This document shows, piece by piece, positions 3,242 to 17,089 of a stretch of 47,811 nt of DNA. The notes beneath the pieces were generated by a model. The model did not search any database. It was not told where the DNA came from and saw only the letters and a list, made by a program, of their open reading frames with translations. Origin of the DNA: Candidatus Aenigmatarchaeota archaeon (GTDB lineage: Archaea > Aenigmatarchaeota > Aenigmatarchaeia > QMZP01); assembly GCA_030670085.1 (NCBI GenBank), contig DAOVCJ010000004.1:1-47811 (forward strand). The letters are read 5' to 3'. Position 1 is the stretch's first letter. Each line of letters opens with the position of its first letter. The position numbers and the translations under genes are program-made.

Positions 3242-4192
3242 ATGTGGTACTACTTTTTGTTCTTTGCTGTAGGAGTGGCCCTTCTGATAAAGGGAGCGGA
3301 CATTGTGGTGAAATATGCCTCTCAGACAGCCCGTCTCCTTGGCGTGTCCAATTTCATGATCGGCCTAACCCTGGTGGCTTTCTCCACAACTCTACCAGAG
3401 CTGTCCGTTTCTATAATGTCCGCCTTCTCTGGTGTGGTTGACATAGCTACCGGAACAGTACTGGGCTCAATAATAGCAAATCCCGCACTTATACTTGCAC
3501 TTGCGGCCGTGTTCGTCCCACTTGCCACAAACAGGAATATAAAAAGGCTGAATTATATACTCATAGTATACCTTCTCATCTTCTCACTACTTCTTATTGA
3601 TGGACTTGTGTGGTACGAAGGACTGGCCTTGATCATTCTATTTGCCTTTTACATGGCAAACATGATCAAGAGGGGAAGAGGGATGGGATCAGAGACCAAG
3701 AAGAAAAAAACCAAAATAGAGTACAAAAGAAGAAGGATAGCGAAATACATCGTTTTCACGATATTTGGTGGAGGGCTTGTTGTTGCAGGCGCCAAGCTTC
3801 TTATAGACTCCACAATAAGCATATCAACTATTTGGGGTGTGCCTGAAATACTCATTGCGATTATAGCTGTTGCAATTGGAACATCCCTCCCTGAGCTAGC
3901 CGTGGTAATTACAGCAGCCTTCAAAAAAATGGTGGGGATATCCATAGGCGATATCCTTGGAGCGAACATGTTCAACGTCATGGTGCTTGGGGCAACTTCT
4001 TTAGTGTCCCCGATACCTGTCACAACAAAGATACTTACAATAGTAATACCAATAATACTCCTCGTTAACGTGCTCCTCCTGCTTTTCATGAGCACGAAAT
4101 GGTTCGTGTCAAAGAAATGGCAGCTATCCAGAGGCGAAGGACTCATACTGCTGCTTATTTACGTGATTTTTGTTTACCTGCAGTTTGTTTGA
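3242..4192 (+). CDS. Ca2+/Na+ antiporter (YrbG/CaCA family)
   Basis: Two alpha repeats (STTLPEL, GTSLPEL) with GSIIAN/GANMFN. The ATG at 3242, right after the ATPase stop, is preferred to the ORF-track start at 3224. Confidence 0.9.
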   Translation: MWYYFLFFAVGVALLIKGADIVVKYASQTARLLGVSNFMIGLTLVAFSTTLPELSVSIMSAFSGVVDIATGTVLGSIIANPALILALAAVFVPLATNRNIKRLNYILIVYLLIFSLLLIDGLVWYEGLALIILFAFYMANMIKRGRGMGSETKKKKTKIEYKRRRIAKYIVFTIFGGGLVVAGAKLLIDSTISISTIWGVPEILIAIIAVAIGTSLPELAVVITAAFKKMVGISIGDILGANMFNVMVLGATSLVSPIPVTTKILTIVIPIILLVNVLLLLFMSTKWFVSKKWQLSRGEGLILLLIYVIFVYLQFV

Positions 4193-12144: not shown

Positions 12145-13803
12145 ATGCCAACGATTGAAGTTTCACACCAGGATCTCTGCAGGCTGGTGGGAAAAAGCAT
12201 ACCAATAAATAAACTGAAAGAAGAGGGTATCTTGTTCGCTAAGGGAGAGATCGATGAGGCCAAAGGAGACCTGCTCAAGATTGATATAAAGGACACGAAC
12301 AGACCAGATCTGTGGAGCACAGAAGGGATAGCAAGGGAGATAAAGGGAAGATACGTATCAGGCGGCCTGCCAAGATACAAAACAAAGAAATCAGGTATTG
12401 TTGTGAAGGTTGACAAGGGGTTAAAGGGCATAAGACCATTCACGGTCTGTGCTGTTGTTAAGAACCTGAAAATATATGACCATTCGCTTTCCCAACTGAT
12501 TCAACTACAGGAGAAAGTATCTGTAACATTTGGAAGAAACAGGAAAGAGGTAGCGATTGGCGTTTACGATCTGAACAGAATAAAACCACCGATAAGATTC
12601 ACAACAGTCAAGCCGGACGGAATAAAATTCATTCCCCTGGAGTTCAGAAAGGCATTGACTCCGAGACAAATTCTGAAAGAGCACCCAAAGGGGAGGGAGT
12701 TTGGATACCTACTCGAAGCTCTCCCAGAGTACCCGATGTTTATTGATTCCGCTGAAGAGGTTCTATCCATACCACCAATAATAAACTCAGAGTACACAGG
12801 CAAGGTCACAAAGGAGACGAAGGATGTTTTTATTGAATGTTCAGGTTTCAATCTCAAATTCCTTATACCTGCATTAAATGTGATGGTTGCTGCCCTCTCA
12901 GACAGGGGAGGCGATATAGAAAGGGTCAGGGTTGTCTACCCAGGAAGGGTACTGGAAACACCAGAGTTAGAACCAAAGGCGTTTGAACTGAACTTGGAAT
13001 ATCTGAACACGGTCTCCGGTCTGGACCTAAGTATAGAAAGGGCGTGCAGGCTTTTGAACCAGGCAAGGTATGAAGCGAAGCCCTCTGGAAAGAGAATAAA
13101 GCTCCTCTACCCAGCGTACAGGCAGGATATAATGCACCAGAGGGATGTTGTTGAAGACGTGCTAATATCCTATGGTTACAACAAAATAGAAGCAGTCATA
13201 CCAAAACTGGCCACAGTGGGAAGCCAGAATCCCATTGAATCCTTTTCCAGTACAGTGTCTGATATAATGGCAGGACTCGGTCTGCAGGAAGTTCTATCCT
13301 ACATACTTACAAACAAGAAAAACCTGTTTGAGAAGATGAACCTCAGGGAGGGGGGTTCGGTTGAGATAGAGAACATAGTTTCAGCGAATTGGTCTGTGTT
13401 CAGGACCTGGTTGCTCCCAAGCCTGCTCGAATTTCTCTCAAGAAATAAGCATGTCGAGTATCCCCAAGGAATATTCGAAATAGGCGATGTTGTGAACTTG
13501 GATAACAGAGAGGAGACGAAGACGAAGGATACAAGAAAGATGGCTGTTGCACTGACCGATAATGTGGTTGGTTATGAGGACATATCAAGCGTACTCGATT
13601 CCCTTCTCAGGAGCCTGGGAACCGAATACAAATTGAACAGGATAGAGCACCCGAGCTTCATAAGAGGCAGAGTGGCCGGGATATTTGTTAGGGGAAGAAA
13701 AATAGGTTTTGTAGGAGAGATAAACCCCTTAGTTCTAGAAAAATGGGATCTGGAGAAACCAGTGGTGGGGCTTGAATTAGACCTTCAGGGACTAGTGTCT
13801 TAG
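12145..13803 (+). CDS. pheT: Phenylalanine--tRNA ligase beta subunit (archaeal type)
   Basis: MPTIEV, NRPDLWS.EGIAR, PPIINS and YRQDIMH..DVVED. GGAGG SD precedes the ATG at 12145. Confidence 0.95.
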   Translation: MPTIEVSHQDLCRLVGKSIPINKLKEEGILFAKGEIDEAKGDLLKIDIKDTNRPDLWSTEGIAREIKGRYVSGGLPRYKTKKSGIVVKVDKGLKGIRPFTVCAVVKNLKIYDHSLSQLIQLQEKVSVTFGRNRKEVAIGVYDLNRIKPPIRFTTVKPDGIKFIPLEFRKALTPRQILKEHPKGREFGYLLEALPEYPMFIDSAEEVLSIPPIINSEYTGKVTKETKDVFIECSGFNLKFLIPALNVMVAALSDRGGDIERVRVVYPGRVLETPELEPKAFELNLEYLNTVSGLDLSIERACRLLNQARYEAKPSGKRIKLLYPAYRQDIMHQRDVVEDVLISYGYNKIEAVIPKLATVGSQNPIESFSSTVSDIMAGLGLQEVLSYILTNKKNLFEKMNLREGGSVEIENIVSANWSVFRTWLLPSLLEFLSRNKHVEYPQGIFEIGDVVNLDNREETKTKDTRKMAVALTDNVVGYEDISSVLDSLLRSLGTEYKLNRIEHPSFIRGRVAGIFVRGRKIGFVGEINPLVLEKWDLEKPVVGLELDLQGLVS

Positions 13804-14553
13804 CCATCCCCACATTCTGTAGAGAGTCGGCATTCTTACTTTATATTCCTCACCAGCGAGCTTTGCGGCTATCGCCATGAACTGCTGAGCAGATACGGAT
13901 CTTGGTGAATGCGCAACCACGGGTCTCTTCTCTGCTATCGCTTTTCTGACTTTATGGTCTTCATGAACCTTGCCCAGCAGGGGAGCATTCAGGAAGCCCT
14001 CTATATCACTCAAAGGAAACTCGTGTGATTCGTTCCTGACCCTGTTTACAACAATACCGATGTTTTCTGTCTCAAACCTCTTTGCCAGCTGTGCGAGCTT
14101 GAGGGCATCTGTTAAAGCCGTTAGCTCAGGATTGGTCACTATTATCATCTCATCCGCTGCCTTGATAGAGGCGGATGCCTCCTTTCCCAGGCCTGCAGCA
14201 GAATCAATCAGAACGAAGTCAGCATCACCCACCAGCTTGTAGAAAACGTCCAAGAGCCTGTGTGCGTCAGGGGACATGATCTTGTCCATTGAAACATCTG
14301 CAGGGACGACCTTAAAGCCATCATGATGATAGTATATAGCATCCCTTATGTTTGCATTGCCCCTCAAAACGTCTTGCAGGGTTATGGGATACATTGATAT
14401 TCCCAAATGCAGACCGAGGTTGGATGTTGTCAGGTTCCCGTCTATCGCAATGACAGATTTTCCTAAAGCAGCAAGGGCAGCTGAAAGATTTGAAACGACT
14501 GTGGTCTTCCCTACACCTCCTTTACCAGAAGCCACACAGATAACACGGGTCAT
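13792..14553 (-). CDS. minD: MinD-family ATPase
   Basis: Deviant Walker A SGKGGVGKTT, DSAAGL, TNPE...LTDA and a C-terminal amphipathic helix (LYRMWGWLRH). Confidence 0.85.
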   Translation of the reverse strand: MTRVICVASGKGGVGKTTVVSNLSAALAALGKSVIAIDGNLTTSNLGLHLGISMYPITLQDVLRGNANIRDAIYYHHDGFKVVPADVSMDKIMSPDAHRLLDVFYKLVGDADFVLIDSAAGLGKEASASIKAADEMIIVTNPELTALTDALKLAQLAKRFETENIGIVVNRVRNESHEFPLSDIEGFLNAPLLGKVHEDHKVRKAIAEKRPVVAHSPRSVSAQQFMAIAAKLAGEEYKVRMPTLYRMWGWLRH

Positions 14554-14591
14554 AGTTTATTATTTGCACCAAAAGGTTAAAAAGCTTGGAG

Positions 14592-14755
14592 CGGACCCGG
14601 AGGGAATTTCACGGGAAGGACGTTTTGGGTAAACCATTACATAACGTCAAACCATTTCGAACCCCCGACCCCTTGCTTAGGAGGCAAGTGCTCTACTGCT
14701 GACCTGAGCAGGCGAAACCTGCTTTATTCGAAGTTTCCAACTGAGCTACGGGCCC
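14592..14755 (-). tRNA. tRNA-Arg(CCU) with two non-canonical introns: D-loop 20/20a (14696-14735, 40 nt) and T-loop 59/60 (14606-14655, 50 nt)
   Basis: Spliced sequence GGGCCCG TA GCTC AGTTGGA|TA GAGC A CTTGC CT CCT AA GCAAG GGGTC GGGGG TTCGAA|T CCCTC CGGGTCC G folds as a full cloverleaf with Arg identity base A20. Both junctions form bulge-helix-bulge-type motifs. CCA is not encoded. Confidence 0.92.
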
Positions 14756-14763
14756 ACACTTTT

Positions 14764-14845
14764 GATAGATGGTTTGTTTAAATATATCCAAGCCATCGTG
14801 CGCTTCTTTCCGATAGATGGCTTATTCCAATCTAAACAAACCAAC
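14764..14845. repeat. Two degenerate 34-nt direct repeats (48-nt period), each a spaced palindrome GATGGYTTR-N12-CAARCCAWC
   Basis: gatagatggtttgtttaaatatatccaagccatc (14764) versus gatagatggcttattccaatctaaacaaaccaac (14812). Confidence 0.7.
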
Positions 14846-14882
14846 ACTCTTTATTTATTAGAGTTTAAATCAAAAATGTTTT

Positions 14883-15803
14883 ATGAAGCCTTATTTATTA
14901 ATGCTCATTGCAATTTTGATTATTTTTTCTGGCTGCACACAAACCGGGGAGATAATAGACAAAACGATTTCCGACGAAGGGGTTGAATTGAACGAAACAG
15001 AAACCACAGCATCTGAAAATATAACACCAGAACAGGAACCGAGTCCGGGAGAACTAGGAGAGGAGCCGGCAGATCTCTGCGCAGGAGTGGTGTGTGGGAA
15101 GACCATAACAACCTGCCCAGACGGATTTGTATCAACGTGCACGAACCCATGCGATACAGAAACAGGAGGGTGCTTATCCTGCAAGCCCGATTGCATCGGA
15201 CACGAAAAAACCGAACAAGAAGAATGTGATTTGGAGTGTGATTTCACAAAATGTGAGGTTCTGGATGAGGAAGAGTGCGAATGCAAGATAACACTATTCT
15301 GTGATGGCAATGGTATATGCGAGCCAGGGGAGTATCCAGATTCGAAAGACTGCCCTGAATGCGATGATGGGGATCCGTGCACACAGAATTCATACGATTA
15401 TGACCTGAGTTTCTGTGTTTACGAAACCATAATCCCATGCTGTGGGAACATGGAATGCGAGGACGGCGAGGATGAGGAGAGCTGCCCAGAGGACTGCCTA
15501 GAGGAGCAGGTTGGTGACGTGAGGATAACTGCATTGAATGAGACAGAAGAGTGGGTCGAGCTGGAGGGATACAACGTTATCATGAGCAACTGGACTCTTG
15601 GTGATTGGAAAGAAAAGCACGTGTATGTGTTTCCAGACTGGTTCATGATAAACGGAAAGGCTAAACTTCACAAGGGCTATGGGGAGGACAACGAAACCGA
15701 TTTGTTCTGGCAGAAAAACTATTATGTATGGAACAACGATGGAGACAACGCGACCCTAAGGGATGAGAACGGAGAAATAGTTGATTTTTACAATTATCCG
15801 TAG
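14883..15803 (+). CDS. Putative lipoprotein with Cys-rich acidic repeats and C-terminal lamin-tail-like domain
   Basis: Lipobox FSGC; CDGNGICE/CCGNMECE..E...SCPEDC repeats; EWVEL...WTLGD...YVFP...VWNNDGDNATLRDENGEIVD lamin-tail pattern. Confidence 0.8.
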   Translation: MKPYLLMLIAILIIFSGCTQTGEIIDKTISDEGVELNETETTASENITPEQEPSPGELGEEPADLCAGVVCGKTITTCPDGFVSTCTNPCDTETGGCLSCKPDCIGHEKTEQEECDLECDFTKCEVLDEEECECKITLFCDGNGICEPGEYPDSKDCPECDDGDPCTQNSYDYDLSFCVYETIIPCCGNMECEDGEDEESCPEDCLEEQVGDVRITALNETEEWVELEGYNVIMSNWTLGDWKEKHVYVFPDWFMINGKAKLHKGYGEDNETDLFWQKNYYVWNNDGDNATLRDENGEIVDFYNYP

Positions 15804-15809
15804 TTAACC

Positions 15810-16334
15810 CTACCTGCATTCTTCGCAAAGCCACCTACCACCAATATTTCTAAGATCATCGGAGTAGGCCTCACACCTCTCACAAATACCGGATATCACT
15901 TGATCGGGATTGGCAACAGCACCAACCCTCATCTTCAGTTTTTCTGAGAGGACATTTATCAGCTCAGGGGACACCAGCAATACCTCTTTGTCAGATACTA
16001 TACCAATGAGTTTACCATCCTTTATAACAGGAACCCTCTTGATCCCGGTCTTTACCATCCTTTTGGTTACCTTCAACACATCCTCATCAGGAGACGCTGT
16101 TACGAACCTGGTTTTCTTTTTCAGACCCCCTACCTTTACCTTTTTGGGATCCTTACCCATTGCAATGGTTCCAACTATGTCATCATCAGTTACAATACCT
16201 ATGGGCTTTGTTTTCTGCATAATGATTACAGAACCAATCCTGTTGTTGGTCATTATCTTTGCAACATCCGCAAGAGTAAGTTCCGGGTCAATTGTCACAA
16301 CGGATCTTTTCATTATCTCCCGTACCTTAATCAT
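15810..16334 (-). CDS. CBS-pair protein with C-terminal zinc ribbon
   Basis: KVREIM..SVVTI, IGSVII..GIVT and RVPVI..GIVS CBS motifs; CERC...CEEC. Start placed at MIKVREIM. Confidence 0.88.
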   Translation of the reverse strand: MIKVREIMKRSVVTIDPELTLADVAKIMTNNRIGSVIIMQKTKPIGIVTDDDIVGTIAMGKDPKKVKVGGLKKKTRFVTASPDEDVLKVTKRMVKTGIKRVPVIKDGKLIGIVSDKEVLLVSPELINVLSEKLKMRVGAVANPDQVISGICERCEAYSDDLRNIGGRWLCEECR

Positions 16335-16411
16335 AGCAACCCCTCTGGTTATATAATTAATGATTCTGTAGCTTATAAAATTAAACCCCAACCTTTCCAA
16401 TCATAAATAGC

Positions 16412-17089
16412 TTATTCCACGGGCTTGACAACAATCCCCTTGCTGGTTATTTCTATTGGATATATATCCTTCCCATGGTCTGTTCTTCTCATCTTCCTTA
16501 TTATCAGCGACCTGTCCAGACCGCCTGCTGCATACTCAAGGTAGTTGAGAACAATGATACCGTCAACCACGAACTCCTCAACACCGAATTTTGAAAGACC
16601 CCTCATCCCCTCAGGTATCTCCGAGGTTATCAATGCAGTACACTTGTTTTTCTTTATGACGTTGATTGTGTTGAACAGGAGCTTTCTTATCTGCGAGACC
16701 TCCTGCATGTTCAAACCGATAAGGGATGTTGAATCGATAACGAGTCTCTTTGCCTTGAGATTTTTTATCTCATCTATGATCATGGATCCAAGGTTGTTGA
16801 CCTGCGCGGGATCGTGGTATATAATTCTGAACAGACCCTTTTTCTCATACTTTGCAAGATCCCACTTGAATGCCCTTACATCCTCTTTTATATCCTCTGG
16901 ATCCTCCTCCAGTGTTATGAATATACAGGTTTCGCCCTTTTTCAAACCGTGCCACAGAAACTGGGAGCAGAGTATTGTCTTTCCTGTTCCTGTCTCACCG
17001 GTTACGAGAATCACGGAATCCTCTATTATACCACCACCCAACAACTTATCCAACCCAGGTATCCCAGATTCTACCCTGCTGAAATCCAT
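16412..17089 (-). CDS. Single-domain KaiC/RAD55-family ATPase
   Basis: SGIPGLDKLLGGG, GETGTGKT, LEE, RLVIDS, EEFVVDGII and RKMRRT. Confidence 0.9.
   Translation of the reverse strand: MDFSRVESGIPGLDKLLGGGIIEDSVILVTGETGTGKTILCSQFLWHGLKKGETCIFITLEEDPEDIKEDVRAFKWDLAKYEKKGLFRIIYHDPAQVNNLGSMIIDEIKNLKAKRLVIDSTSLIGLNMQEVSQIRKLLFNTINVIKKNKCTALITSEIPEGMRGLSKFGVEEFVVDGIIVLNYLEYAAGGLDRSLIIRKMRRTDHGKDIYPIEITSKGIVVKPVE

Follow-up and report, generated by a model that had tools for sequence, protein, structure and literature searches.

The window (the whole 47,811-nucleotide stretch of DNA analysed here) carries on its minus strand, from 14755 to 14592, a tRNA-Arg(CCU) gene built of three exons of 20, 40 and 14 nt, which are separated by one intron in the D-loop and another in the T-loop. 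As judged by sequence comparison the gene is real and very probably functional: the multi-intron tRNA put forward by the first-pass annotation is supported by the cloverleaf that splicing in silico restores, by a blind scan with its control and by a set of 16 orthologues. Our preferred reading, to which we would give a probability of about 0.9, is that of a functional tRNA-Arg(CCU) of an Aenigmatarchaeota (DPANN) archaeon, whose introns would be removed by an epsilon2-type EndA, whose exons would be joined by RtcB and whose CCA end would be added afterwards. The gene is of a kind already known from the disrupted tRNAs of the ARMAN-2 and Thermoproteales type; moderately new are the lineage that holds the epsilon2 enzyme and the seemingly fast turnover of introns in this one gene.

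Anatomy of the gene and of its splice motifs

The span first assigned to the gene, 14592-14755, extends exactly from nucleotide 1 to the discriminator, and all of the features that follow lie on the minus strand. Exon 1 (14736..14755, mature nt 1-20) supplies the 5′ strand of the acceptor stem, the 5′ strand of the D-stem and the first 7 nt of the D-loop, and gave 100% matches to 5′ exons of relatives in a DNA search of related genomes. The 40-nt intron 1 (14696..14735) interrupts the D-loop after mature nt 20, that is at the Sprinzl position 20/20a, listed in the literature as 20/21. Exon 2 (14656..14695, mature nt 21-60) contains the end of the D-loop, the 3′ strand of the D-stem, the anticodon arm, the variable loop, the 5′ strand of the T-stem and the first 6 nt of the T-loop. 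Its anticodon, CCT (14679..14681), reads AGG and sits in a 7-nt loop closed by a 5-bp stem (CTTGC / CTCCTAA / GCAAG); the arm is continuous, so that no intron occupies the canonical 37/38 site, as had been claimed. The 50-nt intron 2 (14606..14655) lies in the T-loop at position 59/60, and exon 3 (14592..14605, mature nt 61-74) brings the last nucleotide of the T-loop, the 3′ strands of the T-stem and acceptor stem and the discriminator G. CCA is absent from the encoded 3′ end. A run of five T (14579..14583), read from the sequence 9 nt beyond the discriminator, is probably the transcription stop, and an A/T-rich, TATA-like stretch (14776..14787), at -32 to -21 from tRNA nt 1 and likewise read from the sequence, may be the promoter. 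A pattern scan for promoters and terminators of the bacterial type gave no hit, a hairpin-type terminator included, as one would expect in an archaeon.

In an archaeal bulge-helix-bulge (BHB) motif, the four exon bases that precede a two-base overhang pair with the 3′ end of the intron, and cleavage takes place in each 3-nt bulge behind its second base. Intron 1 conforms to this 3-4-3 scheme, with a central helix GTTG/CAGC, bulges GA|A and AG|T and a 4-bp inner helix ACTT/AGGT; its outer side is relaxed, owing to an A.A mismatch between the 3′ bulge and the D-stem, and a 6-bp hairpin (AGCAGG/CCTGCT) lies within it. The helices, the bulges, the relaxed outer side and the hairpin had all been named in the first-pass annotation and are present on the minus strand. 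Intron 2 is bounded by a strict 3-4-3 BHB, in which the T-stem itself, GGGGG/CCCTC (5 bp), serves as the outer helix, the central helix is TTCG/TGAA and the bulges are AA|A and AT|T. That much of the earlier description stands. The inner helix GACGTT/AACGTC which it placed at the bulges is indeed there, but as a further hairpin beyond an internal loop; the helix that adjoins the bulges is the 3-bp TGG/CCG.

Taken together, the cloverleaf and the two BHBs comprise 36 pairs, of which 36 are standard. A fold constrained to these pairs reaches -50.4 kcal/mol, as against -55.2 kcal/mol for the unconstrained minimum of the precursor, a gap of 4.8 kcal/mol. The unconstrained minimum draws neither of the two 4-bp central helices and its energy is not distinctive (z -1.28), an indistinctness which does not count against a motif that is recognised by a protein.

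From this anatomy a maturation pathway can be proposed. Transcription of the minus strand would yield a precursor of about 165-175 nt with two BHB introns, in which the two 4-bp central helices would be formed by D-loop nt 15-18 with the 3′-terminal part of intron 1, and by T-loop nt 54-57 with that of intron 2. An endonuclease, presumably the epsilon2 enzyme of the ARMAN-2 type described below, would cut after the second base of each 3-nt bulge, RtcB would be expected to ligate the three exons, and the CCA-adding enzyme would then complete the 3′ end. Because the central helices occupy precisely these D-loop and T-loop nucleotides, the D-loop/T-loop elbow could form only once both introns are out.

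Recovery of the gene by in silico splicing and by a blind scan

In the raw DNA of the window, ARAGORN reports no tRNA and Rfam cmscan gives no match at the gathering score. When the E threshold was raised to 10 over 14450-14900, cmscan returned no tRNA and no C/D-box family, only three chance-level miRNA and IMES matches over the hairpins upstream. The expectation that standard scanners would miss the gene thus holds for both programs, and the tRNA for the most used Arg codon is invisible to them. We then cut the introns out by coordinates in a script and gave the products to ARAGORN. Removal of both introns, with the cut after the second bulge base as had been predicted, yields a tRNA-Arg(cct) with a textbook cloverleaf, whose D-loop and T-loop are exactly those carried by the intron-less orthologues. 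With no intron removed, or intron 1 alone, there is no call, and removal of intron 2 alone gives a spurious call of 90 bases.

The same pair of introns was recovered without prior coordinates. In a scan conceived in the spirit of SPLITS, the 768,442-base assembly was searched for motifs in which all 4 central pairs and no fewer than 6 of the 8 flanking pairs are formed, which left 184,114 BHB candidates among the 4,818,265 sites with a full central helix; the candidates were stripped singly and in all 1,667,959 compatible pairs, and the products were passed to ARAGORN. Single removals gave 68 hits and pairs gave 40, and the latter include exactly 14696-14735 with 14606-14655. A 38-nt variant of intron 1, whose 77-nt product ARAGORN also passes, was rejected; the intron-less orthologues and a metagenome contig that skips the intron fit 40 nt.

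Could the cloverleaf be a chance resemblance, obtained from DNA holding no tRNA gene by two arbitrary deletions? Some false cloverleaves are to be expected from 1.67 million candidate pairs, and the control, the genome reversed without complementing (185,008 candidates, 1,679,858 pairs), did yield one pair hit, next to 0 single hits and 0 plain ARAGORN tRNAs. That hit, however, was an odd 86-nt call, as compared with the textbook cloverleaf obtained here. Furthermore, 15 other genomes have a tRNA-Arg(CCU) which, in a gapped alignment, shares 55-70 of the 74 mature positions with our exons, and what reads as the start of a MinD/ParA-type gene lies 3′ of the tRNA in most of the listed sequences. 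A chance origin has in our estimate hardly any probability left, and is refuted as far as sequence comparison reaches.

Conservation and covariation among relatives

The DNA search covered 61 genomes, our own and 60 relatives, and gave matches in 26. From the fetched loci and one region of a complete genome of the same genus, 16 tRNA-Arg(CCU) genes were identified, our gene included; matches to other tRNAs, namely Thr(CGU) in G058 and G060 and Arg(UCU) in G008, were left out, as were two loci with short exon-2-like matches only (L015, L020). Intron positions in the orthologues were taken from a gapped alignment to the spliced gene and are good to about 2 nt. On this basis, long insertions occur in the D-loop (after nt 19-21) in 8 genes, in the T-loop (nt 57-60) in 7, in the anticodon stem (nt 31) in 2 and at the canonical site (nt 37) in 1, while 4 genes have none; the introns of G048 and G004 failed the BHB thresholds of the automatic calling and were placed by the gapped alignment. 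A D-loop and a T-loop intron are combined in four genomes, G000 (our own), G048, G051 and G054. Within our own genus, three species carry three different sets: a D-loop intron of 40 nt with a T-loop intron of 50 nt, an anticodon-stem intron of 17 nt with a T-loop intron of 22 nt, and a T-loop intron of 46 nt only. In another relative (G045, locus L008), the 3′ trailer of tRNA-Arg(CCU) contains, outside the tRNA, a stretch that looks similar to the D-loop intron of G048 when compared by eye.

The D-loop intron is clearly homologous to the D-loop introns of tRNA-Thr(CGU) in two relatives, and eight aligned D-loop-intron sequences (six Arg, two Thr) could be examined for covariation over a structure made up of the D-stem, the central helix, three inner pairs and a 9-bp hairpin. 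Of 154 cells, 89% pair, against 32-40% when the partners are slid by 1-3 columns. Both sides change in 11 of the 20 pairs, including 8 of the 9 hairpin pairs, and the covariation score was reached by 0 of 500 shuffles, a comparison favoured by the fact that the structure was drawn from the same, related sequences. The central helix tracks the exon, a D-loop GCTG going with an intron CGGC. By these comparisons, the D-loop intron has persisted in two families of genomes, with compensatory changes in its helices.

Among the sequencing runs listed for 13000-16500 of the window, none was of RNA. Contigs from four metagenome runs of four different studies were compared with the locus over 14400-14950. 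Two long ones, of 6,983 and 2,465 nt, span 14400-14922 and differ from our sequence at the five positions 14503, 14763, 14773, 14800 and 14810; a 3,200-nt contig covers 14400-14746 with two, at 14512 and 14518; and the 237-nt contig X5 covers 14553-14789 with three, at 14763, at 14773 and at a third position that has no listed place. None of the differences with a listed place in these contigs falls inside 14592-14755. Many short contigs match only 14656-14695/6 and diverge exactly at the two borders of exon 2. In one contig, 14695 directly adjoins 14736, so that precisely the 40-nt intron is missing; as the shorter side of this contig has only 25 letters, aligned at 85% likeness, it is best read as the intron-less allele of a related organism.

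Splicing machinery

Introns at non-canonical sites need a splicing endonuclease of broad specificity, and the first-pass annotation had supposed that this lineage possesses such an EndA. The assembly (29 contigs, 44% G+C, 87.6% completeness) encodes proteins with PF01974/PF02778 on contigs C5 and C28, and a classification of its EndA subunits, which had been proposed as a check, gives one of the three-unit epsilon2 type (395 aa) and one of alpha type (176 aa). Residues 10-395 of the former align with residues 12-387 of the ARMAN-2 epsilon2 EndA (PDB 4FZ2) at an E of 1.1e-103, and Pfam recognises in it the N-domain and two stretches of the catalytic domain. Its K160, Y240, H254, R278 and K285 align to K161, Y236, H251, R275 and K282 of the ARMAN-2 enzyme, whose residue roles have been described, among them the catalytic Tyr-His-Lys and the ARMAN-specific loop lysine K161 (PMC3488258). 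A full-length homologue which keeps the key residues argues, by homology, that the supposed enzyme is present. RtcB is encoded on C11 (E 1.8e-154), and a CCA-adding enzyme domain is also encoded in the genome.

The epsilon-type protein is widely distributed. A scan of species genomes gave 147 loci that encode relatives of it; among the best 80 of these, the nearest, at 57-89% identity, are mostly titled Candidatus Aenigmatarchaeota, and those titled Micrarchaeota, but for a single one at 62%, stand mostly at 42-52%. In six families of the order, 60 relatives were sampled; by our reading of the match table, 57 of them have a strong match, with an E no higher than 1e-79, and the three relatives lacking one are 74-88% complete.

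The 176-aa alpha-type protein, which has both Pfam domains and whose gene (C28:2317-2790; L021:1477-2004, minus) accompanies that of the epsilon type, raises the question of whether it shares the cutting or handles a single one of the sites, be it by itself or within a mixed complex. A second, weaker match stands beside the epsilon gene in at least 30 of the 60 relatives, a count read by us from the match table and obtained with an epsilon query that is a poor probe for the alpha type. Moreover, the stretch between the catalytic Tyr and His, both in place, is rich in lysine, and an inserted loop in DPANN alpha4 enzymes goes together with disrupted tRNA genes (PMC5829648). However, an alanine (A153) stands at the position of the catalytic lysine, whereas triad and loop lysine are complete in the epsilon protein, and the ARMAN-2 enzyme needs no partner to cut both strict and relaxed BHBs in vitro, among them a T-loop 59/60 intron (PMC3239211, PMC3488258). 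A part for the alpha-type protein is therefore rather improbable, and we regard the epsilon2 EndA as the likely enzyme for both sites.

Need for the gene

The first-pass annotation had also called AGG codons frequent in the window, and this is borne out: AGG makes up 309 of the 12,466 codons, or 54% of Arg, in those ORFs of the contig that reach 200 aa. Genome-wide, in 470 ORFs of at least 200 aa, it is the commonest Arg codon, with 5,326 of 187,230 codons (28.5 per 1000, 57% of Arg). An intact tRNA-Arg(CCU) elsewhere in the genome, which had been named as a sign that the gene is a pseudogene, was not found in the 87.6%-complete assembly: neither ARAGORN nor the BHB scans nor an anticodon-arm scan gave a second credible CCU gene, though one could still lie outside the assembled part. 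The anticodon-arm scan found 29 perfect 5-bp stems around a YT-CCT-RN loop, and by eye only that of our gene is followed by a variable loop and a T-arm. A second tRNA-Arg(CCU) which ARAGORN offers on C24 after two removals was rejected, as its anticodon stem would hold a G.A pair. Codon usage alone is nevertheless no proof that a CCU gene is needed, because the tRNA-Arg(UCU) could in principle read AGG by wobble. The latter lies on C20 and is normal after removal of a 42-nt canonical intron; what ARAGORN calls a tRNA-SeC(tca) on C20 is this same gene, and the call was rejected.

The presence of tRNA-Arg(UCU) lends some room to a different history, in which a former tRNA-Arg(CCU) was broken by insertions of mobile hairpins, is no longer matured and has left AGG to the UCU tRNA. 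Hairpin repeats of a dispersed family do adjoin the gene and occur inside other tRNA genes. But at each insertion a BHB marks the borders in just the register needed to bring back all conserved tRNA positions, the contigs have no listed difference inside the gene while its flanks differ, and the D-loop intron has been kept with compensatory changes in two families of genomes; in addition AGG is the most used Arg codon and the splicing machinery is intact. We consider a dying gene very improbable and retain the reading of a functional, spliced tRNA-Arg(CCU).

Relation to known systems

The closest counterpart is Candidatus Micrarchaeum acidiphilum (ARMAN-2), which has two-intron tRNAs, introns at 59/60 and an epsilon2 enzyme (PMC3239211, PMC3488258, PMC12397907). 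Like the organism studied here, it is a small-genome DPANN with many non-canonical tRNA introns, 59/60 among them, some of its tRNAs having two, and gene finders miss them (PMC3239211); our endonuclease aligns with that of ARMAN-2 over its whole length, with triad and loop lysine kept. The two differ in that our lineage is labelled Aenigmatarchaeota and its genome has an additional alpha-type paralogue, and a tRNA-Arg(CCU) with D-loop and T-loop introns is not among the examples given in the relevant passages (PMC3239211, PMC3488258).

In the Thermoproteales, a gene can have up to three BHB introns (PMC8450103; PMC4090602 and PMC3239211, which cite Sugahara 2008 and Fujishima 2010), and 20/21 and 59/60 both figure in the list of non-canonical sites given in PMC4090602. 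These archaea are, however, hyperthermophiles with (alpha-beta)2 enzymes that bear a Crenarchaea-specific loop, whereas the enzyme here is of the epsilon type and our organism comes from sediment and cold-seep metagenomes. Similar introns in different tRNAs or at different positions have been read there as gain by transposition (PMC4090602, PMC3239211, PMC8450103). This trait is seen for other introns of our genome; the two introns of tRNA-Arg(CCU) have no close paralogue in the genome by blastn-short, and the D-loop intron resembles by eye that of tRNA-Ala(UGC) and is homologous to those of tRNA-Thr(CGU) in two relatives.

Kaneta et al. 2018 reported that DPANN tRNA sets are incomplete with standard tools and described DPANN alpha4 EndAs with an L3 loop, for which a co-evolution of tRNA disruption and endonuclease loop was proposed (PMC5829648). 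The DPANN affiliation, the incomplete tRNA sets and the idea of such co-evolution are common ground. According to that account, Ca. Micrarchaeum (ARMAN-1/2) and Mancarchaeum were the sole known holders of the epsilon2 type; here, in contrast, it spans an order (57 of 60 sampled relatives), with Aenigmatarchaeota-titled records as its nearest named ones. As far as its relevant passages go, PMC5829648 names Aenigmarchaeota only in spelling out DPANN, and a full-text literature search on Aenigm(at)archaeota with splicing endonuclease or tRNA intron gave, among the papers listed, none on the topic by title or abstract. The present gene adds a clean, comparatively supported case to the link between endonucleases of broad specificity and disrupted tRNA genes.

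Intron turnover and hairpin repeats

A more tentative proposal is that small mobile hairpin cassettes drive a very rapid turnover of introns, of which this gene shows a single moment. Three observations speak for it: three species of one genus carry three intron sets in tRNA-Arg(CCU); the D-loop intron is common to a different family of genomes and to tRNA-Thr; and members of a dispersed hairpin family occur immediately 5′ of tRNA genes as well as within T-loop introns and 3′ trailers. We hold this possible, and would put it at somewhat less than an even chance. Were it true, the order, in which the epsilon2 enzyme is apparently universal, would be a natural system for the gain and precise loss of tRNA introns at the DNA level, and the origin of that enzyme would either predate the divergence of the lineages now labelled Aenigmatarchaeota and Micrarchaeota or involve a transfer from one to the other. 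The differences in intron set within one genus provide dated material on the gain and loss of BHB introns.

A search for such introns in other tRNAs of the genome had been suggested as a check, and it was productive. With canonical introns allowed, ARAGORN reports no more than 15 tRNAs for the entire assembly, and at least one of these is mis-called. The BHB scan, whose hits on other tRNAs were grouped by eye and are uncurated, adds genes with a T-loop intron for Ile(GAT), Ser(GCT), Val(TAC), Lys(CTT), Asn(GTT) and Arg(TCG), as well as two-intron genes for Leu(TAG), Ala(TGC) and Gly(CCC); the T-loop introns of the genome number ten. The meagre yield of ARAGORN implies that judgements on DPANN that are based on tRNAs, such as those on completeness, codon capacity or a supposed dependence on a host, can be wrong. 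The tRNA-Ala(UGC) gene (C20:106900-107011, plus strand) has a D-loop and a T-loop intron, of 39 nt after nt 20 and of 35 nt, the former resembling by eye that of tRNA-Arg(CCU).

The T-loop introns of Ser-GCT, Val-TAC, Lys-CTT and Arg-TCG look alike by eye in a hairpin core of about 30 nt, three of them being matched by blastn-short, and further copies of this core are found elsewhere in the genome. A second intron family is formed by the tRNA-Asn T-loop intron and the intron at the canonical site of tRNA-Gly(CCC), to which, by eye, the T-loop introns of G048 and G051 also belong. In our genome the T-loop-intron families are spread over contigs C5, C13, C17, C20 and C21. Just upstream of tRNA-Arg(CCU), two 30-nt hairpin repeats (14768-14797 and 14816-14845, in plus-strand coordinates) stand in opposite orientation; they resemble the core of the T-loop intron family (21 nt at 90% by blastn-short), and the TATA-like stretch is part of the loop of the nearer one. 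On C20, the tRNA-Arg(UCU) gene comes after a hairpin and leader that are nearly identical to these. The neighbouring 306-aa ORF (14883-15800, plus strand) gives a weak match to the Lamin Tail Domain, at 33.6 bits against a Pfam cut-off of 34.3.

The C24 locus mentioned above (about 4031-4175, plus strand) appears to be an initiator tRNA-Met with three introns, one after nt 7, one in the anticodon stem and one after the anticodon loop; ARAGORN gives Lys or Arg readings there only when the wrong segments are removed. Judged by eye, its acceptor ends, and likewise an anticodon arm in which CAT is enclosed by three G-C pairs, agree with what we take to be the hallmarks of an initiator.
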